The translations under genes were made by a program, and so were the position numbers. Below the pieces are notes generated by a model. That model made no database searches. It worked only from the letters and a program-made list of their open reading frames with translations, and had not been told where the DNA came from. DNA of 64,000 nt from Clostridia bacterium (GTDB lineage Bacteria > Bacillota > Clostridia > RGIG7378): the NCBI GenBank assembly GCA_017559445.1, contig JAFYSJ010000034.1, positions 270 through 64,269 of the forward strand, given 5' to 3'. This document shows positions 157 through 53,533 of this stretch, in pieces (the stretch's first letter is position 1; each line of letters begins with the position of its first letter).

Positions 157-2697
157 TTAATATCTAATGAACTGTATATTTGGATCGCATTCCCTAAAAT
201 ACTCTTCTACAATAGAGTATCTGTGCTCTACCCTTACAAGAGAACTACATCCTCTAAAAGAATCATAATAGAAAATTTCCGCTATAGGTGGTAGTCTTAG
301 TTCTTTTAAGGATACACAATTTTCAAAGCATCTCGTAGGTATATATTTAAGTGAGTTTGACAAGTTAATCTTGCTCAAAGATTTACAATTTGCAAAAGTT
401 CCAGGACCCATTGTTTCAACACCATCTGGAATTGTTATCTCATTCAGAGAAGTACAATCTGCAAATACCTCTTCTCCAACCTGCATAACACTACTTGGAA
501 TGGCCAATGTCTTTAAGGATGTACATCCCTTGAAAACCATATCATTTAGTGAGTCCACAATATTCGACAATGTAACATCTGTAAGTGATGTGCAGTTCAT
601 AAATACTGATGGTCCTATATAACTTACAGTATCAGGTATAACAATCTTGCTTAAATTTGCGCAATTTTTAAAGGCACCTTCTTCTATTCTATATATTCCT
701 GATTCGATCGTTACAGACTCTAATCCTGATGCTGCGAACATGTATCTACCAATTATATTCAGGGTGCTAGGTATAACAATTGTCTTTAATGAAGTGCAAC
801 CTTCAAAGATAAAAGCTCCTAGATTATCTACTCCCTTGCCAATTGTAACGTTTGAAAGAGAAGTACAATTTGCAAATGCGCTATCTCCAAGATAATTTAC
901 TGTATCTGGAATAACAATTTGAGTAAGAGAAGTACATCCACCAAAAGTACCATACTCAATTCTTGTTACCTTAGATGGAATAGTAACACTTTTAATAGAA
1001 GTACATTCGCTAAATGCTCCACTATAAATAACATCTACATTACTTGGAATAGTTATATTAGAAAGGTTATAACACTGTGCAAAGGCACACATACCTATTG
1101 TTCTAAGAGAATTAGGTAGTGAAACAGTAACTAGAGATGTGCATTTTTCAAACATCTCATCTCCTATAACAGTTACGCCTTCTTTAATTGTTACTGTTGT
1201 AAGAGAAGTGCACTCTCTAAATGCCCATTGTCCAATCTCTTCTACTCCTGATCCAATAGTAAGTGTTTTAAGTGAACTACATCCCCAAAATGCACTTTCT
1301 CCTAAAGATTTTACGTTATCTGGAATAACAAGACTCTTAAGTCCCAAACAATTTTCGAAAGCTTTTTCCTCTATCTTAGTTACTGAGCCTGGAATAGTAA
1401 TGCTTTCAATAGCATTGCAACTTGATAAAGCTCCAGCACCGATAGTAGTAACACCATTAGGAATAGACAATTGCTTTAATCTATCGCAGCCATATAAAAC
1501 CCAATCGCTAAGTTCTGTTAATCCCTTAGGCAAAGTGATGCTTTGCAATCCCGAACAATTCATAAAGGCGTTTGCCTCAATCTTTGTAACTGTATCTGAA
1601 ATGACTATACTCTTAATGCCTCCAACACCAGCAAAAGCACTATTTCCAATTACAGTTACCTTATATCCATCAATCTGAGAACCTATGACTATATTTGATT
1701 CTGTACATGTACCTACACCAGTAATTGTGCATGTAATTCCATCTGCATTAACTTTGTAACTAAGGCCAATGGATCCATCTGTATTTGGCTTAGGTGTAGG
1801 TGTTGGAGTAGCTGTTGGAACTGTGGTAGGTATTGGCGTTGGAGTAGCTGTTGGTGCAGGTGTAGGTGTTATGGGATCTACATATGTATCAATGTAGCTA
1901 CTACCACAATCAGTGCAAGTATGTGTTGTATATCCCTGACTATTCATTGTTGGAGGAGTTACAACACTATTGTAGTTATGACCCTTTGATACAACAACTT
2001 TCTGAGCTACAAGTACCTTGTTGCATACAGAACAATGCTTACCTTCTGTTAAGCCAGATTGTGTACATGTAGCTGCTACTGCATCGTCTTTTGCCTCTGT
2101 ATGAGGTTTAGTTGCAATTGATGTTTGTGGAACGAGGATTTCTCCACACTTTTTACATTTGCTACCTTCTGTTAAGCCGGCTGTAGTACATGTTGGTTCC
2201 TTACCTACAAGCTTTTCTACATCTGTATGGGTACAGTTTACGTCGCGAATATATCCGCAAACGTTACATGTTTCATCGTTCTTATCTGTGTATGTATGTG
2301 CCTTAATAGGTACTTCATCCTGAGCAATAAGGATTGTATTGCATACGGAACAGTGCTTACCTTCTGTTAAACCTGTCTTAGAGCATGTAGCTTCTACAGC
2401 TGCATCTACTACCTCTATATGAGGAACAAGGTCAATTTGCTGAGTTTCCTTTTCACCACAAGAGCAAACTCTCTCCTGCTCTCCTCTTTCTACACATGTT
2501 GGTTCCTTTGTAATATTCCAGTCTCCATAAGAGTGGGTATGACCTATAGCAGGAGTTGCCGTTGCATCAGGTGTTGAAGTGGTGGTAGGTATAGATGTAG
2601 GGGTGCTTGTTGCTACATCATTTTTATCTCCTGTGGTACAAGACGCCATAGTCACAATCATGAATAGAATTAACAATATGGATAAAAACTTCTTCAT
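157..2697 (-). CDS. Surface lipoprotein: N-terminal lipobox (MASCTTG), Cys/His-rich ~40-aa tandem modules, Pro/Thr linker, C-terminal BspA-type leucine-rich repeats
   Basis: 846-aa ORF; signal peptide with Cys; repeated ATCxxxGLTEGxHCSVCN modules; PTxTP linker; LRR_5-like repeats (IPxxVxxIGxxAFxxCxxL). Confidence 0.8.
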   Translation of the reverse strand: MKKFLSILLILFMIVTMASCTTGDKNDVATSTPTSIPTTTSTPDATATPAIGHTHSYGDWNITKEPTCVERGEQERVCSCGEKETQQIDLVPHIEVVDAAVEATCSKTGLTEGKHCSVCNTILIAQDEVPIKAHTYTDKNDETCNVCGYIRDVNCTHTDVEKLVGKEPTCTTAGLTEGSKCKKCGEILVPQTSIATKPHTEAKDDAVAATCTQSGLTEGKHCSVCNKVLVAQKVVVSKGHNYNSVVTPPTMNSQGYTTHTCTDCGSSYIDTYVDPITPTPAPTATPTPIPTTVPTATPTPTPKPNTDGSIGLSYKVNADGITCTITGVGTCTESNIVIGSQIDGYKVTVIGNSAFAGVGGIKSIVISDTVTKIEANAFMNCSGLQSITLPKGLTELSDWVLYGCDRLKQLSIPNGVTTIGAGALSSCNAIESITIPGSVTKIEEKAFENCLGLKSLVIPDNVKSLGESAFWGCSSLKTLTIGSGVEEIGQWAFRECTSLTTVTIKEGVTVIGDEMFEKCTSLVTVSLPNSLRTIGMCAFAQCYNLSNITIPSNVDVIYSGAFSECTSIKSVTIPSKVTRIEYGTFGGCTSLTQIVIPDTVNYLGDSAFANCTSLSNVTIGKGVDNLGAFIFEGCTSLKTIVIPSTLNIIGRYMFAASGLESVTIESGIYRIEEGAFKNCANLSKIVIPDTVSYIGPSVFMNCTSLTDVTLSNIVDSLNDMVFKGCTSLKTLAIPSSVMQVGEEVFADCTSLNEITIPDGVETMGPGTFANCKSLSKINLSNSLKYIPTRCFENCVSLKELRLPPIAEIFYYDSFRGCSSLVRVEHRYSIVEEYFRECDPNIQFIRY

Positions 2698-2807: not shown

Positions 2808-5585
2808 TTATTGATACTTTTTAAACACAATATTAGGATGGCAATTATTAAACGCTGTAGAATCACATTTGTAGCCATTATTTGATACACCAACAGACAT
2901 ACTATATGGCATATTTACTAATGCGAGACTTTCACAATTTGCAAAAGCGCTCTGCCCTATGGACTTTACAGTCTTAGGAATGGTTATTGTTTCCAAAGAA
3001 GAACAACCGCTAAAAGCAAACGCATCAATCATTGTAACTCCTTCTGGGATTGATATGCTCACTAATGATGTGCATTTATAGAAAACAGCATGCTTTATTT
3101 CCGTAACCTTTGATGGTATTTCGAAAGATTCAAGGCCTGAATTACTAAATGCATAGGCTTCGATTACTTCAATTGAATCTGGCAACTCTATTGTTTTAAG
3201 AGCACTACATCCACTAAATACAGAATAGGCTATATTCTTTAGACCATCTGGAATATTCACATTCTTCAAAGAAATACAACCTGAGAACATTCCATCTCCC
3301 ATTTTAACTAAATTATTAGGGAATATTACGGATTCCAAACTTTTACAATTAGCAAAGATACCGCTGTATGTAATCTCTGGGATACTGGATGGCCATGTAA
3401 CACTCTTCAACCCTGTACAGTAGTAAAATGCATTATTTTCAATTGTTTTTACACTATTGGGAATAACAACTTCCTTCATGCCTGTACAATAGTAGAAAGC
3501 ATACATTCCAATTGAAGTTACCGTGTTAGAAATAGTAAAACTTTCAATGTCATACTTATACGCAAAAGCATATTGTTTAATTGAAACTACTGTATATCCA
3601 TCAATTTCAACAGGCATAATGATGTTTGTATCAGTGCAATTGCCAATTCCCGTAATTGTGCATGTCTTTCCATCACTATTTACACTATAAGCTAATCCCT
3701 TTGAGGCAAGTGAATCAACGTATGAATCCACATAGCTATGACCACACTTTGAGCAGGTGTGTGTTGTGTAACCCTTAGATGTTACTGTTGGCGATGTTAC
3801 TACGCTGCTATATGAATGATTTAATGGAGTTACAGTCTGCGCTACAAGCACGGTATTACATACAGAACAATGTCTACCTTCTGTAAGACCTGTGCTTGTA
3901 CATGTTGCGGCTACTGCTGAGTCTATTACTTCTGTATGACCCTTAGCTGGAATCACTGTCTGTGCTACAAGTACCGTATTACATACGGAGCAATGTTTAC
4001 CTTCAGTGAGTCCTGTTCCTGTGCATGTAGCTGGTACAGCCACATCCTTCACTTCAGTATGACCTTTAGCTGGGATTACAGTTTGAGCTACAAGTACTGT
4101 ATTACATGTAGAACAATGTTTACCCTCAGTGAGACCTGTGCTTGTGCAGGTTGGTGACACAGCCACATCCTTCACCTCAGTATGGCCTCTAGCTGGAACT
4201 ACAGTCTGTGCTACAAGCACGGTATTACATACAGAACAATGTATACCCTCAGTGAGACCTGTGCTTGTACAGGTTGGTGACACAGCCACATCCTTCACCT
4301 CAGTATGACCTTTAGCTGGAACTACAGTCTGCGCTACAAGCACGGTATTACATACAGAACAATGCTTACCCTCTGTAAGGCCTGTTTCTGTGCATGTTGG
4401 AGCTTTTGCAGCATCTACTACTTCTGTATGTGACTGCACGGGAACAACAATTTGATCAGCAAGTACTTCATTACATGCAGAACAGTGTCTGCCCTCTGTA
4501 AGACCAGTGCTTGTACATGTTGCTTCTACTGCCACGTCTGTTACTTCTGTGTGACCTTTTGCAGGAACTACAGTCTGAGAAACCAAGATCTCGCCACACT
4601 TTTTACACTTGCTACCATCTGTTAATCCTGCTGTAGTACATGTTGCTTCCTTACCTGGAATAACCTCAGTATTTGAATGTGCGCACTCTGCATCTCGTGT
4701 AAATCCACATACGTTACATGTCTCATCGTACTTATCGTCATATGTATGAGCTACTATTGGAACAATTTCTTGAGAAACTAGTACTGTGTTACATACAGAA
4801 CAATGCTTGCCCTCTGTTAATCCAGACTGAGTGCATGTTGCCGCAACAGCAGCATCCTTTACTTCCGTATGACCCTTAGCTGCAACTACCGTCTGTGCCA
4901 CAAGCACCTTGTTACATACGGAGCAATGCTTACCCTCTGTTAATCCAGACTGAGTACATGTAGCAGCAACTGCTGTGTCTTTTACCTCTGTATGTCCCTT
5001 GGCTGCAATTACTGTCTGAGCTACAAGGATTTCGCCACACTTTTTACACTTGCTACCTTCTGTCAAACCAGCTGTAGTGCATGTTGCATCTTTTCCCACA
5101 AGCTTTTCTACATCTGTGTGAGCACAGTTTATATCGCGAACATATCCGCAAACGTTACATGTATCGTCGTTCTTATCTGTATATGTATGTGCTTTAAGGG
5201 GAACTTCATCCTGAGCAATAAGGATTGCATTACATACGGAACAGTGCATACCTTCTGTAAGACCTGTTTTATCACATGTTGCCTCTACTGCAGTATCTAC
5301 TACTTCTGTATGAGGAACCAGATCAAGTTCCTGAGTTTCTTTATCCCCACAGGAACAAACTCTCTCCTGTTCACCCTTTTCTACACATGTGGAGTCCTTT
5401 GTAGTAGTCCAGTCTCCAAATGTGTGAGTATGATCTGGATTAGGAGATGCTGTTGCCTCAGGTGTTGGAGTTGCAATGTCTCCTGTGTTCTCGCCTGATC
5501 CAAGCATTATAAACAATGCAATACCGATGCCTGCTAAGAGCAAGGCAACGACTGCAATTATTATGATTATTTTTTTGTTTTTCAC
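2808..5585 (-). CDS. Paralogous surface protein: signal anchor, ~12 tandem 41-aa Cys/His modules (GHTEVxDxAVxATCTxxGLTEGxHCSVCNxVLVAQ), C-terminal BspA-type LRR
   Basis: 925-aa ORF, GTG start with GGGAGA RBS; N-terminus near-identical to fragment at 1-136; LRR C-terminus similar to 157-2697 product. Confidence 0.8.
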   Translation of the reverse strand: MKNKKIIIIIAVVALLLAGIGIALFIMLGSGENTGDIATPTPEATASPNPDHTHTFGDWTTTKDSTCVEKGEQERVCSCGDKETQELDLVPHTEVVDTAVEATCDKTGLTEGMHCSVCNAILIAQDEVPLKAHTYTDKNDDTCNVCGYVRDINCAHTDVEKLVGKDATCTTAGLTEGSKCKKCGEILVAQTVIAAKGHTEVKDTAVAATCTQSGLTEGKHCSVCNKVLVAQTVVAAKGHTEVKDAAVAATCTQSGLTEGKHCSVCNTVLVSQEIVPIVAHTYDDKYDETCNVCGFTRDAECAHSNTEVIPGKEATCTTAGLTDGSKCKKCGEILVSQTVVPAKGHTEVTDVAVEATCTSTGLTEGRHCSACNEVLADQIVVPVQSHTEVVDAAKAPTCTETGLTEGKHCSVCNTVLVAQTVVPAKGHTEVKDVAVSPTCTSTGLTEGIHCSVCNTVLVAQTVVPARGHTEVKDVAVSPTCTSTGLTEGKHCSTCNTVLVAQTVIPAKGHTEVKDVAVPATCTGTGLTEGKHCSVCNTVLVAQTVIPAKGHTEVIDSAVAATCTSTGLTEGRHCSVCNTVLVAQTVTPLNHSYSSVVTSPTVTSKGYTTHTCSKCGHSYVDSYVDSLASKGLAYSVNSDGKTCTITGIGNCTDTNIIMPVEIDGYTVVSIKQYAFAYKYDIESFTISNTVTSIGMYAFYYCTGMKEVVIPNSVKTIENNAFYYCTGLKSVTWPSSIPEITYSGIFANCKSLESVIFPNNLVKMGDGMFSGCISLKNVNIPDGLKNIAYSVFSGCSALKTIELPDSIEVIEAYAFSNSGLESFEIPSKVTEIKHAVFYKCTSLVSISIPEGVTMIDAFAFSGCSSLETITIPKTVKSIGQSAFANCESLALVNMPYSMSVGVSNNGYKCDSTAFNNCHPNIVFKKYQ

Positions 5586-5686: not shown

Positions 5687-8146
5687 TTACTTTTGTGTTA
5701 TTTTTATGTACTTATAAGCATTATTAAATGCTGTCTTATCATATGATCCCTTTGCCATCGTTACATTCGCTAGAGAAGTACAATTAGCAAAACAATAGCC
5801 TGAAATATATGATACCGAAGGCAACTCTATACTTGTTAGAGACGTACAATTAAAAAATGTATAAGGTTCAAGCCAAGTTACATTCTTTGACATTGTAACA
5901 CTCTTAAGTGCTATGCATCCACTAAATGCCCCTTCCTCTATCCAATCTACACTGTCTGGGATTACAATGCTGGTAATGGTTTTGCAACTTTCAAAGGCAA
6001 ATACACCAATAGTTGCAACCCTTTTTTCATTGTACGTAGATGGAATAACAATGTCAGTATCAGTACATGTTCCGATACCTATAACCGTATATGTACCATC
6101 ACTCTCAAGCCTAAACTTAAGACCTAGGGGTCCTGTCTCTAACGGCTTAGGCGTGGGCGTCGGAGTCACTGTCGGTTTCGGCGTTGGTGTTGCCGTAGGC
6201 TTCGGCGTCGGTGTTGCCGTTGGCTTCGGCGTCGGTGTTGCCGTTGGCTTCGGCGTCGGTGTCGCCGTTGGCTTCGGCGTTGGTGTTGCCGTTGGCTTCG
6301 GCGTCGGTGTTGCCGTTGGCTTCGGCGTTGGTGTGGCCGTTGGCTTCGGCGTTGGTGTTGCCGTTGGCTTCGGCGTCGGTGTTGCCGTTGGCTTCGGCGT
6401 TGGTGTGGCCGTTGGCTTCGGCGTTGGTGTTGCCGTAGGCTTCGGCGTTGGTGTTGCCGTTGGCTTTGGCGTTGGTGTTGCCGTTGGCACTGGCGTTGGT
6501 GTTGCCGTTGGCTTCGGCGTCGGTGGTGCCGTTGGCACTGGACTTGGTGTCGGAGTCAAAGTCGGACTCGGAGTTGGAGTCGCAGTCACCATTGGTGTGG
6601 GTGTAGCCGTCGGCCTATGTGTTGGTGTAGGACTTGGCGTAGGACGACCAATAACTACAACCGGCTTTGGTGTTGGAGTTGGAGTCGGTTTAGGTGTTGG
6701 TGTCGGTGTGGGACTTGGTGTAGGCACAGGTGTAGCCGTTGGCACTGGGCTTGGTGTCGGAGTCGCAGTAGGTTCCGGTGTTGCTGTTGGCACTAGACTT
6801 GGTGACGGAGTTGCTGTAGGAACCGGAGTTGATGTGGCCGTTGGCTTCGGTGTTGGAGTTGGTGTTGGCATTGCTGCTTCCCACTTTTTCTCCCAGAATG
6901 GACTAAACTCCACATTAAACAAAGTTAAATCTGCCAATTGCTTATCTATAACTGGCACAGTAACAACCAATTTTCCTCTCAAAAGAGGTGATACACTGAG
7001 TTTCAAATTGCCTGCAACCTCAGGACCACTAGAACCCATATATCCCTTAAGTTGTCCTTCCATCTTTGCAGTAACACCTGCTGCAATTTCTGTACCTGTG
7101 CTACCATAAAGCCTAGAAGTCAATTTTGTTACAACTCCTATGCTTGCATTTCCTGAGAAATCCGCCTCTGTTCCCCACTTAAATGGTTCCTTGGGCTTAG
7201 TAAACTGGTTAATTTCTGTTAGGTCTCCCTTGTTATATATAAATCCCACGACTCTTTCCGTGTCCAAGGAAACCGTTGCAGTAAATGTACCTGTAACATT
7301 TGCACTTCCTTCTATTCCAAAGTACAAATCATTTGTAATAACAACTGGAATTACACAGTAAAAATAGATATTAGGTAATCTTTTATTAGCAATTTCCTTT
7401 TCGTACTCACCATTATATATCTCATGCTCATATTCAAGGGACATTTCACCGTCTGTAATCAAGTGAGTTACTAAAGAAAGCTCTACCTTACGCCACCTAA
7501 CCTTGAGAGTAAACTCAAGCCAAATAGTGCAGCCAATATTGCCCTTTAATGTTGTGTTTTTGGCAAGTTTGAAATTGAAATCTCCAGAATATGCAAATTG
7601 AGCATCTCCATTTGCAAGTCTAGAAAATGCAGGTTCTTTTTCCATGCGTAAATTAGAAAGGTCATTGGAATTACTGCAGAGCAAAATAGCCCCTGCCAAA
7701 AAATCATCTCCACCTTCCAAATCGGATTCATCCATCTCAAAGAAAGTTTCCTCTGTAATAAGGAAGTTCTTAGTAATATTTGCCTCTTCGAAAACATCTG
7801 CAAATGTGGCAGGTTCTGTTTCATACACATACATGCCATCGACAACCTTAACGTCCACTACCTTAACCATGAATCCTGAAGGTGCAACATCTGTAATATC
7901 AGACACAACAACATCACCAATCTGAATCTCTGGATCATGATTGTAAACAAGAGTGTTCTCCTCTACTATGACAGGGGTCTTGGCTTCCTCTGTTGTCTCT
8001 GTAACAATATGTACGTTATCGTTTATGACTGCGGTGCCTTCTGCTGGCATAGAATTCCTGTCGTACAAGAAAATTCCTACACCTACGGCAATAGAAACTG
8101 CCAGAACGGCGCTTATGATAATAGCTAATAACCTACCCTTTGACAT
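5687..8146 (-). CDS. Membrane-anchored surface protein: N-terminal TM, unknown ~400-aa domain, long ([10 protein letters not shown])n linker, C-terminal BspA-type LRR
   Basis: 827-aa ORF (track start 8170; internal ATG at 8146 has a GAGGA RBS); near-perfect 30-bp tandem coding repeats; LRR tail. Confidence 0.7.
6165..6530. repeat. ~12 near-perfect tandem copies of a 30-bp unit (cggcgttggtgttgccgttggcttcggcgt) encoding [10 protein letters not shown]; coding VNTR
   Basis: direct reading of the periodicity in the sequence; the antisense ORFs 5913-7109 and 6211-6438 are artefacts of this repeat. Confidence 0.85.
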
Positions 8147-8266
8147 ATGATCCTCTAGTTTTATGTACATTATTCGTCAATTATAGCACAAAATTCATTC
8201 ACCAACACCAAACACTAAACACTGGACCCTACTTTTGCTATAATTCCCTTAAGGGAGGACAAAATC

Positions 8267-10363
8267 ATGAAAACATACACAAACTCTAAACTTTCCAAAA
8301 GAACACTATTACCTTTTCTCGCAATTGCACTTGTTTTGACACTTTGTCTTACAGCTTGCGGAGATAACAATCAGGGAGACCCTTCTCACGAACATTCTTT
8401 TTCTGAGTGGACTGTCACACAGGATCCCACATGCACTACTATCGGAAAAGAAACTAGAGCATGCTCATGCAAGGCCACTGAATCCAGGGATATTCCCACT
8501 CTTGAACACAACATTGTGGTACTTCCCGGCAAGGACCCAACTCCAACAACCGAAGGACTTACTGAAGGTGCTGGATGCTCTGTGTGCGGCTTGGTTACTG
8601 TTGCTCAAGAAATAATTCCTTGCATAACTCCTTGGGACGGAACTGTTGCCGACTCCTTTGCCAAGGGTACTGGCTCTGCTCAAGATCCATACATTATTTC
8701 CAACGGAAGTGAACTTGCCTATTTGTTTACTTTGATTTCTGACTCACAGTACAAAAGCTGTGCGGGACTTTTCTTTAAAATTTCCCAAGATATTCACTTA
8801 GGCGACTTAGAATGGCCCTACGGAATTGGCGACTTTAATTCCCAATTCTCTGGCACATTAGATGGCAATAACCACTATATTTCTAACTTCCAGATTAACT
8901 ACACAGAGAAACTAAGCCACACTATGATCGGCCTCTTCCCTATGCTGTACAATGCATATATCAGCGATCTAGGTTTGAAAGAATTTACCATAACTGCCAG
9001 TGGAAATGCGGGCCTATCCATTGGAGGTTTGTCCGGATATTCAAGTGATTCCACCATCACAAATTGCTATGCCATTGGCTCAATCGATGCAACAGAAACT
9101 ACATATTACAGTGCTGTTGGTTTGTTAATCGGAGACCTTTACCAATGCACAGTTAATAAATGCTATTCCGAAGGAACTGCAAAAGCATACAACAGCAATT
9201 TTTACACAAATGTTGGCGGACTTTTAGGCCACACTAATAAGGGAGAACTTAGGGAAAGCTATTCCTCCGCAACTGTGTATGGCTCCTGTGCAGCTGGTTT
9301 AGTCAGCAGTGTATCAAACACAAATATCTCTGATTGCTATGCCACAGGTGACGTATATGCTTACGGCTATGAACCAAACGGCTATCGCGTTGACCTTTAT
9401 GTCGGTGGCCTTATTGGACATTGTACCTCCCAGGAATCCTTAAAGAACTGTTACGCAACAGGCAACGTGAATTACTCTGGTCCTGCCACATATGCATTTG
9501 TTGGAGGTCTCGTTGGCAATAGCTATACCATCGAAAACTGCTATGCTACAGGCAATGTTACTGCTACGAATTGTAGCGGAACACTGGAAATTGGCGGTTT
9601 AGCAGGCTCCTGCAGTGCCACAACATGCGCTTACGCTACTGGCAATGTTACTGTTACAAATAACTCTTCCTCATATGTATATGCTGGAGGATTCGCTGGA
9701 ACTTTTGCTAGCATTATCGATCAGGCTTTTGCCACAGGCGATGTATACGTAGAAAACACATGTGACACCGCAAACTTTATTATTTTGGATGTTGGCGGAT
9801 TCGCTGGATACTCAAAGAGTGGCGGAACCACAAACTGCTACGCTACTGGCGACGTTACTGTAGTTGGAAACAACTACATAAACGCAGCTGGTTTTATTGG
9901 CAAGTGTGAACTCAGCATGTATGACGGATACAACTCATTCAAAAACACCTCCTGCTATGCCACTGGTAATGTTACTGCAACAGGTATTCAGGGCAATTAT
10001 AGTATCTACATGGAAGTGGGTGCTTTCTCTGGTTACCAGGGAATTATCCCCGACAACTGCCTTGCCACTGGAAACATCACAGTTACAGGTGCAACAGGCG
10101 GTAGCCATATAGGCAATTTTGCTGGCCTTACATACCATTCATTCCAAAGTGATAACAGCGTTTACGATGCAATGAACATTAGTATCGAAACCTTGGACGG
10201 CAGCACATTAACTGCAACAACCAATGCATCCACATGCAAATTAGCGGACATAAACAACAAGACATTCTATACCGACTCTCTTGGTTATGACCCCAACATC
10301 TGGAATCTGGATGACATAGACTTTGAAAATGGTAAAATGCCAACATTGCTTTTTAGTAAGTAA
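8267..10363 (+). CDS. Surface lipoprotein with one N-terminal Cys/His module followed by many GLUG-like repeats (..VGGLxG..NCYATGNVT..)
   Basis: 698-aa ORF; GGGAGG RBS; lipobox LTAC-G; one HxxxxW..C.C..TEGxxCSVC module; >12 repeats of G-L/F-x-G + CYATG. Confidence 0.75.
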   Translation: MKTYTNSKLSKRTLLPFLAIALVLTLCLTACGDNNQGDPSHEHSFSEWTVTQDPTCTTIGKETRACSCKATESRDIPTLEHNIVVLPGKDPTPTTEGLTEGAGCSVCGLVTVAQEIIPCITPWDGTVADSFAKGTGSAQDPYIISNGSELAYLFTLISDSQYKSCAGLFFKISQDIHLGDLEWPYGIGDFNSQFSGTLDGNNHYISNFQINYTEKLSHTMIGLFPMLYNAYISDLGLKEFTITASGNAGLSIGGLSGYSSDSTITNCYAIGSIDATETTYYSAVGLLIGDLYQCTVNKCYSEGTAKAYNSNFYTNVGGLLGHTNKGELRESYSSATVYGSCAAGLVSSVSNTNISDCYATGDVYAYGYEPNGYRVDLYVGGLIGHCTSQESLKNCYATGNVNYSGPATYAFVGGLVGNSYTIENCYATGNVTATNCSGTLEIGGLAGSCSATTCAYATGNVTVTNNSSSYVYAGGFAGTFASIIDQAFATGDVYVENTCDTANFIILDVGGFAGYSKSGGTTNCYATGDVTVVGNNYINAAGFIGKCELSMYDGYNSFKNTSCYATGNVTATGIQGNYSIYMEVGAFSGYQGIIPDNCLATGNITVTGATGGSHIGNFAGLTYHSFQSDNSVYDAMNISIETLDGSTLTATTNASTCKLADINNKTFYTDSLGYDPNIWNLDDIDFENGKMPTLLFSK

Positions 10364-10489: not shown

Positions 10490-10966
10490 TTACTCCACAC
10501 CTGGCAACTTACATACATCTACCCATGCATCGTACTCAGAGCACTGCTCAAGCTCTGCAATAGTAAGTCTAATTGCACTGTTGCTACTGCCACATGCTGG
10601 ATAAACTGCCTCAAATCTCTTAAGAGACTCGTCCAAATATACCTTTACTCCATCCTCTATGCCAAAAGGGCAAACGCCTCCAACAGCGTGTCCGATAAGC
10701 TCAACCACCTGATCTGGAGTAAGCATCTTGGCCTTTGTTGCAAACTGAGCCTTGTACTTAGGATTGTCCACCTTAGCATCTCCTGCTGCAACTACGAGAA
10801 TAGGTGTCTCCCAAACCATAAAGGAGAGGGACTTAGCAATGTGACTTGGTTCGCATCCAATTGCCTGTGCTGCCAACTCAACTGTTGCGCTGGAAACTTC
10901 AAACTCCTGGATTCTGCCTTCTAAACCATACTTTGCTAAATGTGCTCTAGCTCTATCTATTGCCAT
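10490..10966 (-). CDS. ybaK: YbaK/ProX-family aminoacyl-tRNA deacylase (Cys-tRNA(Pro) editing)
   Basis: 158 aa; fold-family similarity (..VVAAGDAKVDNPKYK.., HAVGGVCPFG); GGAGA RBS. Confidence 0.6.
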   Translation of the reverse strand: MAIDRARAHLAKYGLEGRIQEFEVSSATVELAAQAIGCEPSHIAKSLSFMVWETPILVVAAGDAKVDNPKYKAQFATKAKMLTPDQVVELIGHAVGGVCPFGIEDGVKVYLDESLKRFEAVYPACGSSNSAIRLTIAELEQCSEYDAWVDVCKLPGVE

Positions 10967-11039: not shown

Positions 11040-11315
11040 TTTCACTAGCGCAGCGGCCTACTAGCAACGCAGTTGCGGTTCACTAGGCGTAGCCGGTTCA
11101 CTAGCAAGCTTTGCTTGCGGCTCACTAGCCGAAGGCGGTTCACTAGGCGTAGCCGGTTCACTAGCAAGCTTTGCTTGCGGCTCACTAGCGCAGCGGCCAC
11201 TAGCAACGCAGTTGCGGTTCACTAGGCGTAGCCGGTTCACTAGCGCAAAATCGCTAAAATCAATCTTAGGAACATTTTTCCTGCGTTAAACACTAACCAC
11301 TAAGCACTAAACACT
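11040..11315. repeat. Modular repeat array, locus 1: ~12 (TTCACTAGC + mini-hairpin) modules (11040-11256) followed by inverted AGTGTT-type repeats (11285-11315)
   Basis: seen directly; hairpin types GCAGCGGC, AACGCAGTTGCGG, GCGTAGCCGG, AAGCTTTGCTTGCGG, CGAAGGCGG; a 60-bp segment is duplicated. Confidence 0.85.

Positions 11316-11336: not shown

Positions 11337-11337
<1 letters not shown>
11317..11337 (-). terminator. Hairpin (AAAATTCAC-tcg-GTGAATTTT) abutting the groEL stop codon; probable groESL terminator
   Basis: perfect 9-bp stem directly 3' of the groEL stop on the minus strand. Confidence 0.45.
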
Positions 11338-12956
<1,619 letters not shown>

Positions 12957-15801: not shown

Positions 15802-18756
15802 TTACTTCTTAAACTTTGAAATCAATGCCATAAGGTCAGCAACGCTCTTTTTCTTAAGAACAAACCAAACAACTGCGAAACCGCCCGCTCCAAGCACAAC
15901 CGCTCCGCCAATGCATCCAGCCACTATGCCTACAACCGCTCCTGCCTCTAAGCTATCATTATCCTCTCCTATAGAAAGGTCTCTACCACAAACATCACAT
16001 TCTTTATCCCCATCAGTATCCTCGTGGCTAGCCTTGTCATATACATGCTCTTCGCAATCTGCACAGTCGTGCCAGTGGTAGTTCTTGTTCTTTCTCCACT
16101 TTGTCTTTGCTGTGTGCTGAACAGGAGTTACATCTATAGTATCATCTGAAGAATTATTGCTGCCAATGTAGTATGCGCAGACACTGCAGTACTCATATTC
16201 AGTATCGTGAGGCACAACGGAACTCTCATCCTTTGCTCCACAACGACAGATATACCAGTGAGTTGTATCGTCGTTTCTAACAACCTCGTATGTGTGCTCT
16301 ACCTCGCGAATAAAACCACAATTATCGCAATCGGCATCGCATTCGTTAGAGTTATCGTATACGTGACCATTTGCGTGAATCTTGCCATTTGCGTCGATAC
16401 AAAGACCAGATGCATCTTCAATAACTATTGTTCCATCCACTGCTTCAGAAACATTACCAAAGGCGTACAAATTTGTGTTAATGGAATCAGTCTTCAAATA
16501 GGAGCAATCCTTAACCTCGCCACGTCCCCAAATGGATTCGCTATAGCCTGCGATTCCACCAACCATGGTATTACCTGATACATTACCAAGGTTAATATTA
16601 CCTTCGAGTCTGATAAATCTCATCCATCCGACAATACCACCTACATACTCAACACCAGTTACGCAACCAGAATTATTTCCAACGATGCTACCACGATTGC
16701 TGTCGTTGTCCGAAAATCCAATCAAACCACCAACGTACTTTTCGCCTGCGATGTCACCATAGTTATTACCAGATGTCCAGCTATCTCCTGCACCTAAGCC
16801 GCAAACACCACCAACATAATCCTTACCTGTTACGTTACCGTAGTTATCACACTTGCTAGGGTTATAAAGCTCACTGCATCCTCCAGCAATACCACCTACG
16901 TAGTTACCTGTGGAGAAAACATTACCGTTGTTCACACATTCTGTAATATCCCAATGTGTGATATATCCAGCGATACCACCTACATAGTTGCCTTTACCAA
17001 AAACATCTCCATTGTTAACGGACTTTTCTACACTGCCAGCTACACTAGATACAATGCCTCCAACATAGTCCACGCCAACAACTGCACCTTCGAAAGTGCA
17101 ACCATAAATGGTGTGTGAGTTAAGTCCAATACAAATACCAGCTGCAGATCCAGCTGTAGATCTAACATATGCATTCTTAATGCTGATGTTCTTTACGTCT
17201 GTACCCAAATTACATATAAATGCCACATTCTCAGCAGAGTCCATGTAAAGTCCATAAATGGTAAATCCATTACCGTCCAAAATACCATTCAATCCAGAAA
17301 TAGCCTTCCACTTATTCAAAGAGGATGTATCTACTGTAATGTTACCCATTGCATCGTATGTAAGGGCAACTTCGTTAAGAATAATGTCATTAGCCAACAT
17401 GTAGTTGTAGTCCACCCACTCACCACTTAAGTTGGACAAAAAAGCAAGCTCAGAAGCGTTGTAAATCATGTAGTAATAAACGCCGTCTACATTAACAAGT
17501 ACTGTTGGCTCCTTAGCAGATCCATCCCAAGGACCTTCCTGAGCAGGAGGTGTTATTCCCTCTTCTCCTGCAACGTTTCCAAACTCAGTCAAATTGGTGT
17601 TAATTGTGTCATTTTTGTCAAAGGAGCAATTTTCCACGGCACCTCTTCCCCAGATGGAATCACTAAAACCAGCAAGTCCACCTACCATGGTTGTACCAAC
17701 AACGTTACCTGAATTGTGGCAATTTGAAAGGGTAATAAATCTCATCCATCCAACAATACCACCTACGTATTCAATACCAGTTACGCTACCAGAGTTGTTT
17801 CCAACGATGCTACCACGATTGCTGTCGTTGTCCGAAAATCCAATCAAACCACCAACGTACTTTTCGCCTGCAATATCACCATAGTTATTACCAGATGTCC
17901 AGCTATCTCCTGCTCCCAAACCGCAAATACCGCCTACGTAATCCTTACCAATTACGCTACCGTAGTTATCACATTTACTGGGGTTATAAAGTTCACTGCA
18001 ACCTCCAGCAATGCCTCCTACGTAGTTACCTGTGGAGAAAACATTACCGTTGTTCACACATTCTGTAATATCCCAATGTGTGATATATCCAGCGATACCA
18101 CCTACATAGTTGCCTTTACCAAAAACATCTCCATTGTTAACGGACTTTTCCACACTGCCAGCTACACTAGATACAATGCCTCCAACATAGTCCACGCCAA
18201 CAACTGCACCTTCGAAAGTGCAACCATAAACAGTATGTGAGTTAAGTCCAATACAAATACCAGCTGCAGATCCTGCTGTAGATCTAACATATGCATTCTT
18301 AATGCTGATGTTTCTTACATCTGTGCCCAAATTACAGATAAATGAAGCATTTTCTGCAGAGTCCATGTAAAGACCGCAGATGTTAAAACCGTTGCCGTCC
18401 AAAATACCCTTTAATCCAGAAATAGCCTTCCACTTATTCAAGGAAGAAGTATCTACTGTAATGTTACCCATTGCATCATATGTAAGGGCAACTTCGTTCA
18501 GCACAATATCATTAACCAAAATATAGTTATACTCGAGCCACTCTCCGGATGCCTGCGCCAAGTAAGCCAGCTCCTCAGCTGTAGAAATCTCATAATAGTA
18601 AACGCCCTCCACAGATCTAATTACTGTAGGCTGAGTAACTGTCTTGCCATCCCATACCTTAACTTCGTCTGCATATGCATTCTGAGCGTTAAAGCCAACT
18701 GTAACTGCAAGCAAAAGTACAGCAATTACCATCAAAAAGGTTTTAATTTGTTTCAT
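15802..18756 (-). CDS. Large cell-surface protein: signal peptide, two near-identical ~370-aa halves each with GLUG-like repeats, C-terminal Cys/His module, C-terminal TM anchor
   Basis: 984 aa; AGGAGA RBS; signal MKQIKTFLMVIAVLLLAVTVGFNAQNAYA; internal duplication; HWYICRCG...CSVC...CADCEEH...CDVCG; C-terminal hydrophobic helix + KKK. Confidence 0.85.
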   Translation of the reverse strand: MKQIKTFLMVIAVLLLAVTVGFNAQNAYADEVKVWDGKTVTQPTVIRSVEGVYYYEISTAEELAYLAQASGEWLEYNYILVNDIVLNEVALTYDAMGNITVDTSSLNKWKAISGLKGILDGNGFNICGLYMDSAENASFICNLGTDVRNISIKNAYVRSTAGSAAGICIGLNSHTVYGCTFEGAVVGVDYVGGIVSSVAGSVEKSVNNGDVFGKGNYVGGIAGYITHWDITECVNNGNVFSTGNYVGGIAGGCSELYNPSKCDNYGSVIGKDYVGGICGLGAGDSWTSGNNYGDIAGEKYVGGLIGFSDNDSNRGSIVGNNSGSVTGIEYVGGIVGWMRFITLSNCHNSGNVVGTTMVGGLAGFSDSIWGRGAVENCSFDKNDTINTNLTEFGNVAGEEGITPPAQEGPWDGSAKEPTVLVNVDGVYYYMIYNASELAFLSNLSGEWVDYNYMLANDIILNEVALTYDAMGNITVDTSSLNKWKAISGLNGILDGNGFTIYGLYMDSAENVAFICNLGTDVKNISIKNAYVRSTAGSAAGICIGLNSHTIYGCTFEGAVVGVDYVGGIVSSVAGSVEKSVNNGDVFGKGNYVGGIAGYITHWDITECVNNGNVFSTGNYVGGIAGGCSELYNPSKCDNYGNVTGKDYVGGVCGLGAGDSWTSGNNYGDIAGEKYVGGLIGFSDNDSNRGSIVGNNSGCVTGVEYVGGIVGWMRFIRLEGNINLGNVSGNTMVGGIAGYSESIWGRGEVKDCSYLKTDSINTNLYAFGNVSEAVDGTIVIEDASGLCIDANGKIHANGHVYDNSNECDADCDNCGFIREVEHTYEVVRNDDTTHWYICRCGAKDESSVVPHDTEYEYCSVCAYYIGSNNSSDDTIDVTPVQHTAKTKWRKNKNYHWHDCADCEEHVYDKASHEDTDGDKECDVCGRDLSIGEDNDSLEAGAVVGIVAGCIGGAVVLGAGGFAVVWFVLKKKSVADLMALISKFKK
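16430..18700. repeat. Intragenic tandem duplication: two ~1.1 kb segments (about 16430-17560 and 17600-18700) nearly identical at nucleotide level
   Basis: identical peptide stretches in both halves; the spurious antisense ORFs 16565-16762 and 17594-17884 share the same translated sequence. Confidence 0.8.
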
Positions 18757-51580: not shown

Positions 51581-53533
51581 TTAATAAATTTCATTTTTCT
51601 TTTGCTTAGATAAAATCGATAAAATAATCACAATGTTGATCACCAAACCTACAGTTGCATACACAGTGAACTGCATCACTATATTATTTTCCCACTTCTT
51701 AGCTGGATCCACATACTTATAACCACATGCGCTACAGATACGGGTTTCATTCTCAAATTCATGGTAGGATGTTACTTGTTCACCACATAAATCACAAGTT
51801 CCTGAGTGACTAGAGTTGGAGTACACATTGTATTCCAATATTCGATGGGTTATCGGAATGTCCTCTTGTTCGGCCAAAACAGCACCACACTTGTTGCATA
51901 TTTGTCCATCTGTTCTGCCTAACCTTTTACAAGTAGCTGCATAACCCTCTATAATCCTGATATCATGCTCTTCCTGACAGGAAAAAGCGTACATCTCTAC
52001 AATGTTATAATAATGTTCCAAAAGTTCCTTCCAGCCCTGATTCTCACTAGGATAATAAACCTTAGCTGTAATAGTATATTTCTTACCAATTGAAAACAAA
52101 TGCGGTACTTCCCCGTAAAACCATATTTCTTCTAGATCCGGGCAATTAAACATGGCACTATAACAAAAATTCCTTACTGTCCATGGTATTTCCAGCTTCT
52201 TTATTCCTGAACCTGTAAATGCATTCATTCCTATTGTCTCTAGGCCATTTGGTAAAACAATAGAAGTCAGTCCCTTAACATTAAATGCACACTTGTAATA
52301 TAATTTTATTGTTTCAGGATGCACAACATGCTCACCCACATATCCTTCTGGTATCAAGTACAACATTTTCTCTCCATTGTGAGTGAGGTTGCCATTGTTA
52401 TTACTATAAATCTTGTAGTAAAGAGCTCCATTATATATGACAAATAATTCATTTTCAGATCCCATCGTAAGAGTTCTCAAACTACTAGATCCTTCAAATA
52501 CATCGCTTGCTATACTTCTAACTGAATCTCCAATATACACCTCTTTAAGAGAGGTGCATCCACTAAACAATTGTTTTGGCAGCTTCTTCACTTGGAGTGG
52601 AATCTCAATCTTCTCTATACTTGAACAGTTCAAATAGGCGCCTATTTCCAAGTTTATTAAGCTGTTTGGGAAAACAACTTCCTCTAGGCTAGTACAATTT
52701 TCAAAGGCTTTTTCTCCAATTGTCTCCAAGCCTTCCGGCAGAGGAACTTTTCTTAAATTTACACATCCCGAAAATGCTTTTCTACCTATTTTTACTAAAC
52801 CCTCTGATAAGGAAATTTCCTTTAACTCCAAGCATCCATTAAATGCCTCTTCACCTATTTCCTTAAGATTAGTTCCGATAACAATCTCTTTAAGTTTTTT
52901 ACAATTGCTAAAAGCTTGATTTTTTATTACTTCTACACTATCTGGCAAAACAACTTTTTCTAAACTTATACATCCCTGAAATAAGTATGACGAAATCTCT
53001 TTTATCTCCGCGTTTATGGTAACCTCTCTAAGCTGTTCGCATCCGGCAAAAGCACTATATTCTAAAACTTCTAACTTATCCGATAATGTTACGCTCTTTA
53101 GTCCTGTTTTTGAGAAAGCATTATTTCCAATATATTGAACATTGCTTATATCTATTTCAGATAGATTGTTGCAATATTCAAAAGCATTTTTTCCAATTTT
53201 TGTAAGGCTCTTTGGCAATACAACCTTTTTCAGTGACGCAAAACAATAGAATCCGTATGATTCAATCCCTGTTATTCCCTCATTTATTACAATAGTCTCA
53301 ATGTCGTAAATATAGTATCTCCAACCTGGACGAGATTGAGTTGACTCATAAGCAGATTCTGAGCTCTGTATTTCTCCTGTACCTGATAATGTCAGGACCT
53401 TAGTATTAGGATTATACTTCCAGTATATCGTACCTATATTACCTGAAGTTGCCTCTGCGGAGGCTACACCACAAAAAGCAAGCATACCAACAATCATTAA
53501 AAGCATAAGCGTTATGACCAATAACTTTTTCAT
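51581..53533 (-). CDS. Cell-surface protein: signal peptide, N-terminal BspA-type LRR domain, C-terminal Cys/His modules, C-terminal TM anchor
   Basis: 650 aa; GGAGGG RBS; LRR_5 repeats; C-terminal CQEEHD..CNKCG..CDLCGE..CSACGY then a hydrophobic helix. Confidence 0.85.
   Translation of the reverse strand: MKKLLVITLMLLMIVGMLAFCGVASAEATSGNIGTIYWKYNPNTKVLTLSGTGEIQSSESAYESTQSRPGWRYYIYDIETIVINEGITGIESYGFYCFASLKKVVLPKSLTKIGKNAFEYCNNLSEIDISNVQYIGNNAFSKTGLKSVTLSDKLEVLEYSAFAGCEQLREVTINAEIKEISSYLFQGCISLEKVVLPDSVEVIKNQAFSNCKKLKEIVIGTNLKEIGEEAFNGCLELKEISLSEGLVKIGRKAFSGCVNLRKVPLPEGLETIGEKAFENCTSLEEVVFPNSLINLEIGAYLNCSSIEKIEIPLQVKKLPKQLFSGCTSLKEVYIGDSVRSIASDVFEGSSSLRTLTMGSENELFVIYNGALYYKIYSNNNGNLTHNGEKMLYLIPEGYVGEHVVHPETIKLYYKCAFNVKGLTSIVLPNGLETIGMNAFTGSGIKKLEIPWTVRNFCYSAMFNCPDLEEIWFYGEVPHLFSIGKKYTITAKVYYPSENQGWKELLEHYYNIVEMYAFSCQEEHDIRIIEGYAATCKRLGRTDGQICNKCGAVLAEQEDIPITHRILEYNVYSNSSHSGTCDLCGEQVTSYHEFENETRICSACGYKYVDPAKKWENNIVMQFTVYATVGLVINIVIILSILSKQKKNEIY

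Follow-up and report, generated by a model that had tools for sequence, protein, structure and literature searches.

Arrays of a 41-residue Cys/His unit, homologous to the putative zinc-binding domains of an IgA protease, between anchor and head of clostridial surface proteins

The stretch of DNA considered here (the window, 64,000 nucleotides of contig JAFYSJ010000034.1 in the Clostridia bacterium assembly GCA_017559445.1; all coordinates are those of the window) encodes several large surface proteins, one of which, protein B, is largely made of tandem Cys/His units that are the subject of this report. The protein B gene lies on the minus strand at 2808..5585 in the list of open reading frames (ORFs), has a GTG start and specifies 925 amino acids (aa); the plus strand of 2808-5585 holds no ORF and its translation is full of stops. 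Protein B starts with a membrane anchor and ends with a BspA-type leucine-rich repeat (LRR) domain; between the two lies an array of 15 Cys/His units, 580 aa in length. The anchor (about aa 6-28; 5502..5570, minus strand), preceded by MKNKK, falls within the sole hydrophobic stretch that a Kyte-Doolittle plot gives for the protein (aa 2-32), and by the positive-inside rule it is probably an uncleaved signal anchor that leaves the N-terminus inside and the C-terminus outside the cell. The LRR domain (aa 632-925; 2811..3692, minus strand; Pfam LRR_5, E-value (E) 3.5e-100 in three stretches) is presumed to be the binding head. Protein B is also present on the ENA contig ERZ28019177:k141_2299486, where its record carries no Pfam match.

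The array (aa 52-631; 3693..5432, minus strand) was delimited with regular expressions, unit boundaries and profile hidden Markov models (HMMs) and is composed of one founder unit, nine canonical units of 41 aa, two 43-aa variants with the motif SKCKKCG (K-type), two short units of 22 aa and one cap. Read from the N-terminal end, and all on the minus strand, these are the founder (aa 52-91, HTHTFGDW…C…CSCG, of the form H..C..CxC; 5313-5432), canonical unit 1 (from aa 92; 5190-5312), a short unit (from aa 133; 5124-5189), a K-type unit (from aa 155; 4995-5123), two canonical units (from aa 198 and 239; 4872-4994 and 4749-4871), the second short unit (from aa 280; 4683-4748), the second K-type unit (from aa 302; 4554-4682), six uninterrupted canonical modules (from aa 345, 386, 427, 468, 509 and 550, together aa 345-589; 3819..4553) and the cap (aa 590-631; 3693-3818), in which the first Cys is absent and an additional His is found (…THTCSKCGH…). 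The canonical consensus in protein B is GHTEVxDxAVxxTCTxxGLTEGxHCSVCNxVLVAQxVxPAK and the two short units follow the pattern HTYxDKxDxTCNVCGxxRDxxC. An HMM whose 191 single modules come partly from homologues and partly from the window gives 11 significant copies in protein B (independent E-value (i-E) 9e-16 to 1.5e-24), and a short-type HMM recovers the short units with i-E of 2e-12 and 2e-15. At the DNA level Tandem Repeats Finder gives 6.1 copies of a 123-nucleotide (nt) unit at 3831-4579, with 77% matches and a score of 745, and this array overlaps the run of six modules; the copies are mutually 61-90% identical in protein and DNA alike, the best adjacent pair being 90% identical at the nucleotide level. 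Such recurrence is far above chance expectation, and chance is excluded. A sequence-only reading of this DNA had counted about 12 consecutive copies; the tandem array is real, but the HMM detects 11 copies, and the two short units break up their run.

The module has the signature H-x11-C-x3-G-x6-C-x2-C. In a set of 4,203 module matches from 266 proteins, 3,260 of them full length, the full-length modules keep the His in 100%, the first Cys (C14) in 99%, and G18, C25 and C28 each in 100% of cases; the His that opens the next unit is kept in 98%, and a second His (position 24, ahead of CxxC) in only 68%. Within the window the His, C25 and C28 are kept in 16/16 copies and C14 in 15/16. Where the first Cys is lost other potential ligands appear, namely the cap His of protein B, a Cys at aa 119 of protein C and a His in subdomain III of the protease described below. 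With all four residues either invariant or 99% conserved, the earlier description of an extracellular tandem module with one His and three Cys is borne out.

Four other proteins of the window carry related units. When the module HMM was tested on 603 six-frame ORFs of the window it matched proteins A, B, C and E only. Protein A (gene 157-2697) has a module region at aa 53-262 (1912..2541, minus strand) made of a founder, three HMM-significant modules, one short unit and a cap; its N-terminus resembles a lipoprotein signal (…VTMASC) and the modules are followed by a Pro/Thr linker and then by LRR_5 (E 2.7e-138). Protein C (gene 8267-10363; NCBI MBR5137759.1, 'hypothetical protein') has a founder and one degenerate module at aa 42-128 (8390..8650, plus strand; HMM i-E 5.1e-13), flanked by a lipobox (LTAC) and by GLUG repeats (Glug, E 2.2e-26). 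In the protein C module (aa 81-119) Pro replaces the first Cys (PTPTTEG) and the additional Cys at aa 119 (…IIPC) stands three residues ahead of the expected next-unit His, the total still being one His and three Cys, perhaps a swap of one ligand for another. Protein D (gene 15802-18756) has no significant match to the canonical HMM (E 0.44); in it a C-terminal Cys/His region (aa 794-928; 15973..16377, minus strand), directly ahead of a C-terminal transmembrane (TM) anchor (aa 936-967), contains one short-type unit (short-type HMM, i-E 8e-4) and W-type units of the pattern HxxxxW…H[WY]HxCxxC…H…CxxCG (HWHxCxxC in protein D); a W-type HMM built without protein D matches it with E 6.7e-8. Protein E (gene 51581-53533) has one canonical module and two small CxxC units at aa 519-613 (51695..51979, minus strand; module HMM i-E 6.2e-12, W-type HMM E 0.0028), placed between LRR_5 (E 3.7e-92) and a C-terminal TM anchor (aa 618-644).

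Five window proteins share the module superfamily, therefore, and the sequence-only reading was right to that extent, but the 41-aa module itself occurs in four of them and protein D has only the subtype that is like the IgA protease. The anchor is a lipobox in A and C, an N-terminal TM segment in B and a C-terminal TM segment in D and E, the head is LRR_5 or GLUG, and in 5/5 proteins the Cys/His units lie between the two; the LRR_5 and Glug matches together with the TM and lipobox positions uphold the combination with LRR or GLUG domains beside membrane anchors that had been noted before. By LRR_5 (E 1e-23 to 1e-138) A, B, E and F belong to the BspA-type LRR family, which covers the head domain only and nothing of the Cys/His stretch. 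In protein F (5687-8170, minus strand) a TM anchor is followed by an unknown domain, a Pro/Thr linker and LRR_5; the protein has the same anchor-spacer-LRR layout as protein B, with the linker (270 aa; a 24-nt unit repeated 15 times with 93% match at 6177-6536, encoding PTPKPTAT) in the slot of the Cys/His array.

In the copies of Pfam-A and NCBIfam that were searched, the module is covered by no model at its cut-off, whether whole proteins or isolated fragments are scanned; the earlier reading had likewise not recognised it as a named domain. The scans returned just sub-threshold zinc-finger, EGF and DUF (domain of unknown function) noise. On the whole of protein B the model PF24973 (EGF_LMN_ATRN) scores 28.0 against a cut-off of 27, in a single stretch covering 29/44 profile positions; an identity as laminin-type EGF (PF24973 / PF00053) was rejected, as a two-module fragment scores 24.2 and 18.6 bits and a unit has three Cys rather than 6-8. 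A Kazal inhibitor was rejected (best E 0.13 over 20 residues with the first profile against PDB, and six Cys expected), and so was a zinc ribbon, as each unit has one CxxC instead of two knuckles and every zinc-ribbon Pfam model stays below its cut-off. The likeness to a zinc ribbon or treble clef proposed from the letters alone is reduced by this to a loose resemblance. Precomputed Pfam labels on homologues, from a newer release, show no common family, just sporadic spurious ones, and include one 'faint' PF26486 (DUF8157) label on proteins with W-type units. Literature searches with motif strings of the module returned nothing relevant, and searches on DUF8157, PF26486 and periscope plus zinc found only the two IgA-protease papers cited below (PMC12237041 and PMC12415215).

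Broader profiles against PDB sequences were more informative. A profile of 47 diverse half-modules (H-x11-C-x3-G-x5,6-CxxC, with the window copy first) matches only the IgA protease of Thomasclavelia ramosa, chain 9qa6_A (PDB 9QA6), with E 1.1e-14, the next match being at E 0.07. The matched stretches are 854-884 (i-E 3e-8), 943-969 and 1103-1131 (i-E 0.012), and the best of them is HNLTLVAAKAATCTTAGNSAYYTCDGCDKWF. A W-type profile that includes the protein D unit also finds 9qa6_A (E 3e-19; stretches 906-968 and 1075-1132), and with neither profile does any other PDB chain fall below E 9e-4. It should be noted that the narrower queries, the first profile and single sequences, had no significant match in PDB (9qa6_A at just E 1.6, and E~1 with a single sequence). 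In the alignment His906 of the chain falls on the subdomain boundary published as G934|H935, and a residue offset of 29 would place the matched stretches in subdomains I-III of zinc-binding domain 1 (ZBD1) and in ZBD2. Judged by these profile matches, the window units are homologues of the units of ZBD1 and ZBD2 (equal to C-terminal domains CTD2 and CTD4) of the protease.

In the protease ZBD1 (879-1008) and ZBD2 (1101-1171) are elongated strings of subdomains of ~35-55 residues with three-stranded antiparallel sheets, the subdomain interfaces hold putative structural zinc sites (2His+2Cys, and one 3Cys+1His), ZBD1 extends ~110 Å for 129 residues, and the 24 Cys of the enzyme form no disulfides in experimental structures or models (PMC12237041, PLoS Pathogens). 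CTD2 was found by small-angle X-ray scattering to be a fully extended rod and a spacer role was proposed for it (PMC12415215, PNAS). The domains, also called 'metal-associated periscope domains', were described in 2025 as a putative new zinc-binding fold and as a periscope or spacer domain (PMC12237041, PMC12415215); the passages seen of an EMBO Journal paper on the same enzyme do not mention the C-terminal zinc domains (PMC12402451). The unit type is already known, then, from one enzyme and as a prediction (PMC12237041, PMC12415215), and the idea that the module is wholly novel cannot be kept, although the sole match is to a domain whose function is only hypothesised, so that no family with a known function is clearly matched.

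The likeness extends beyond the alignment. In the protease (UniProt Q9AES2), as in the window, unit boundaries lie at a Gly-His junction, the motifs ATCTxxG…CxxC and HWHxC occur, residues form Cys/His tetrads, the prediction is all-beta, zinc is predicted only and the host is a gut member of the Bacillota. Both sets of units stand between a cell anchor and a functional domain (5/5 proteins in the window), and the module models described below agree with units of ~35-55 aa built of short strands with no helices. The differences are that the protease has three and two heterogeneous subdomains, mostly with 2His+2Cys, whereas the window has a uniform 41-aa unit with Cys3His; that the protease combines a C-terminal sortase motif with an M64 peptidase, as against TM or lipid anchors with LRR_5 or GLUG cargo; and that only the window family is amplified into tandem arrays, protein B having 11 copies and other proteins as many as 55.

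A structure prediction for three modules, which the sequence-only reading had suggested, was made with AlphaFold2 for aa 424-555 of protein B from an alignment of 68 three-module windows. The model is all beta (mean pLDDT (predicted local distance difference test) 97, predicted template modelling score (pTM) 0.63), with strands of 2-4 residues that repeat every 41 aa and no helix. In the modelled strand pattern the CxxC lies at the turn between two strands and the His at the junction with the preceding unit. A second model, of a canonical, a short and a K-type unit (aa 92-203), has pLDDT 87.7 and pTM 0.44; in it the short unit (pLDDT 78-81) is almost without strands. Foldseek searches of PDB with both models gave nothing at E<=0.001. 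The top non-significant neighbours were the rods of SasG G5-E and of the Aap B-repeat (probability <0.3), followed for the second model by the zinc-ribbon proteins RPC10, Rpb9, A12 and NrdR (probability <0.2).

SasG and Aap of Staphylococcus are single-layer beta-sheet rods without a hydrophobic core, have a link with zinc and place their repeats between a wall anchor and a head. The window array resembles them in its tandem repeats between anchor and head, and would do so in shape if it forms the rod proposed below, but there is no sequence or significant fold similarity to the window modules; the Aap zinc sites are intermolecular, consist of His and acidic residues and serve dimerisation, whereas an intrachain staple is proposed here, and the window DNA repeats (61-90%) are more diverged than those of SasG and Aap. 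Zinc ribbons (TFIIS C-terminal domain, Rpb9/A12/RPC10, NrdR) share with the units small beta-hairpin metal sites, which in the units are putative, and a CxxC knuckle, and ZBD1 subdomain I distantly resembles the TFIIS zinc domain (PMC12237041), but in the window units a lone Cys and a His replace the second knuckle and the units are extracellular and concatenated.

The module is widespread. A HMMER scan of 1.84 billion cluster representatives with a 41-position profile found it in 20,109 proteins at E<=1e-3, 13,287 at E<=1e-10 and 4,777 at E<=1e-30, with maxima of 55 copies per protein and a protein length of 7,169 aa; a search with the 579-aa array found at least 7,987 proteins at E<=1e-3 among 8,000 candidates. 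The few source names are 'hypothetical protein', 'Ig-like domain-containing' and 'leucine-rich repeat', from metagenome-assembled genomes (MAGs) of Clostridia, Oscillospiraceae and Ruminococcaceae. A genome scan for module runs with the consensus sequence added MAGs of Oscillospiraceae, Acutalibacteraceae, Faecousia, Ruminococcus, Lachnospiraceae, Christensenellales, Erysipelotrichaceae and Anaerovoracaceae, from human, chicken and ruminant guts, and identity to the consensus was 66-86% in those of Oscillospiraceae, Lachnospiraceae, Erysipelotrichaceae and Christensenellales. Partner domains, counted among the 120 matches listed from the array search, were LRR_5 (14), cohesin (10), Flg_new (10), dockerin (6), Big_2 (5), transglutaminase core (4), trypsin-like (2) and SLH, GLUG, metallo-beta-lactamase and fn3 (1 each), a variety that fits a generic spacer. 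In the literature searched there is no report of 41-aa Cys3His tandem arrays, of their spread over more than 20,000 clusters or of the LRR, GLUG, cohesin and dockerin cargo. Two further occurrences may be recorded here. Arrays with 72-77% identity to the consensus lie on contigs binned as Prevotella, Salinivirgaceae and 'Bacteroidetes' (loci L047, L055 and L073), which could reflect binning error or gene transfer outside the Bacillota. Two gut-virome entries of BFVD match the three-module model, A0A8S5QLF9 ('S-layer homology domain', Podoviridae sp. ctdRZ1; E 6.4e-8, 32% identity) and A0A8S5SUG5 ('Leucine rich repeat protein', Siphoviridae sp. ctqPo10; E 1.9e-3), and represent either a phage-borne module or host genes on viral-labelled contigs.

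From these results we consider it probable that the repeats form a rigid stalk stapled by Zn(Cys3His) sites, zinc being assigned on conservation and on the relation to the ZBDs. Each small all-beta unit would contribute one structural zinc site made of one His and three Cys (H-x11-C-x10-C-x2-C). Because the CxxC is modelled at a strand turn and the His at the unit junction, we infer that the site joins the end of one sheet to the next hairpin: the His and the first Cys would come from the end of one small sheet and the CxxC knuckle from the first hairpin of the next. Each zinc would in this way staple consecutive sheets end to end, giving a thin, rigid rod without a hydrophobic core. For the 15 units and 580 residues of protein B the rod would be ~50 nm long if the 0.85 Å per residue of the homologue applies, and it would act as a 'periscope' stalk that carries the LRR head across the cell wall and out past it; the remaining window proteins would have shorter versions in the same position. 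A metal site is preferred to disulfides because an odd number of Cys (three) plus a His in each unit fits a tetrahedral site, and because the habitat is probably anoxic (membership of the Clostridia, and the gut or rumen origin of related genomes, make an anaerobic host probable) and the homologous protease has no disulfides. Set beside the roles suggested by the sequence-only reading (disulfide-stabilised stalk units, or extracellular metal- or ligand-binding beads), a metal-binding stalk unit is best supported, by conservation and by the ZBD homology in which zinc is likewise predicted.

Several points weigh against this interpretation. The invariance of the four residues is partly a matter of ascertainment, as the module sets were seeded with a regular expression that requires H, C and CxxC. 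The ligand geometry and rod shape are putative, the models having a pTM of only 0.63 and 0.44, and zinc in the protease domains is itself only predicted, 'pending experimental validation' (PMC12237041). The DNA identity between copies (61-90%) is below that of classical length-variable periscope proteins, and an LRR-domain search for a close orthologue of protein B, with which copy number could be compared, found none (best 46% identity). Finally, conservation across taxa is strong at surface residues as well (the consensus being GHTEVxDxAVxPTCTxTGLTEGKHCSVC), and this could point to a binding function beyond spacing.

The last point leads to the alternative that survives best, namely that the units are themselves functional, in zinc-dependent homophilic adhesion of the Aap/SasG kind, in zinc capture or storage, or in binding of host or plant polymers, in which case the LRR or GLUG domains would not be the sole binding part. 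The sequence conservation across families and partner domains (66-86% to the consensus) is indeed unusual, arrays of up to 55 copies in proteins of up to 7,169 aa are in keeping with repeated binding units, and the nearest fold neighbours, non-significant as they are, include Aap, whose B-repeats give Zn-dependent adhesion (PMC12415215). However, four protein ligands saturate a zinc ion and leave no bridging site, as has been argued for CTD2 and CTD4 (PMC12415215), the highly diverse partners, which include enzymes and cohesin or dockerin domains, fit a neutral spacer better, and structural constraint may bear on most residues of so small a domain, which has no hydrophobic core, and would account for the conservation. 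We therefore regard functional units as unlikely.

That the units are instead disulfide-stabilised EGF-like or Kazal-like modules without metal appears very unlikely. Extracellular Cys-rich repeats are usually disulfide-bonded, PF24973 passes its cut-off on whole protein B (28.0 vs 27), and Kazal inhibitors were the top PDB sequence matches of the first profile, although not significantly so (E 0.13). Against this, the 24 Cys of the homologous IgA protease form no disulfides (PMC12237041), the EGF match is partial (29/44 positions) and drops to 24.2 bits on the two-module fragment, and the host is an uncultured member of the Clostridia with gut or rumen relatives and a probably anoxic habitat. 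The three Cys of a unit cannot all pair and the His is as invariant as they are, so that the disulfide-stabilised stalk units offered as one option by the earlier reading are improbable. Least credible of all is that the Cys3His sites hold iron or an Fe-S cluster and that the array is a redox-active surface wire or sensor: Fe or [2Fe-2S] can sit in Cys3His sets of other protein families, rubredoxins are among the weak, non-significant PDB sequence matches and the habitat is probably anoxic, but ~41 residues per site would space the sites ~35 Å apart at 0.85 Å per residue, too far for electron hopping, library and PDB sequence searches gave no significant similarity to any redox family, and no cytochrome or electron-transfer genes were seen beside the module genes.

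If the zinc-stapled stalk is correct, tens of thousands of surface proteins in Clostridia of gut and rumen would owe their stalks to one unnamed 41-residue unit; adhesins, proteases, transglutaminase-like enzymes and cellulosome-type proteins with cohesin or dockerin are among them. It would be a rare case of extracellular, high-affinity Cys/His zinc sites that serve as structural rivets where disulfides or a hydrophobic core would otherwise be used, and the repeat could give protein engineers a simple rod, modular and of defined length. With a named family model, many of the 'hypothetical' giant proteins of gut metagenomes, a large share of them, would gain an annotation, and the homology connects the little-understood tail of a therapeutically studied IgA protease to a huge family. 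A further and quite speculative extension, to which we give a low probability, is that the arrays do more than passive spacing: since nothing but exposed Zn(Cys3His) staples would hold the rod together, its stiffness and length would depend on extracellular zinc and anoxia and so act as a widespread environmental switch on the surface of gut Clostridia. Zinc withholding by the host (e.g. by calprotectin) or oxygen would then undo the staples, and the cargo of the stalk, be it adhesin, enzyme or cohesin, would be retracted or inactivated.

The lineage and neighbourhood of the genes were also considered. The GroEL encoded in the window has an identical counterpart in a 'Clostridia bacterium' MAG, and its identity to GroEL of the Acetivibrio group is ~79-80%. 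Relatives with 90-95% identical GroEL (loci L084, L085 and L086) keep the backbone hpf-pcrA-groES-groEL-tRNA_edit; these loci are without protein D and without the entire C-F-B-A surface-protein cluster, and gave no match to the module HMM. Protein D sits between hpf and pcrA in the window, a gap which in L084 is only 229 bp. Because these GroEL-close relatives keep the backbone without the genes in question, protein D and the C-F-B-A cluster look like lineage-specific insertions. As a separate feature, protein D has an internal duplication: two near-identical halves of ~370 aa (aa 40-400 and 410-780) with GLUG-like repeats, on which Pfam Glug reaches 17.9 bits against a cut-off of 20.5. An intergenic, perfect 60-nt direct repeat (1.9 copies, 100% match) is present at 11075-11189, flanked by a tRNA_edit-family gene (10490-10966) and groEL (11337-12956).

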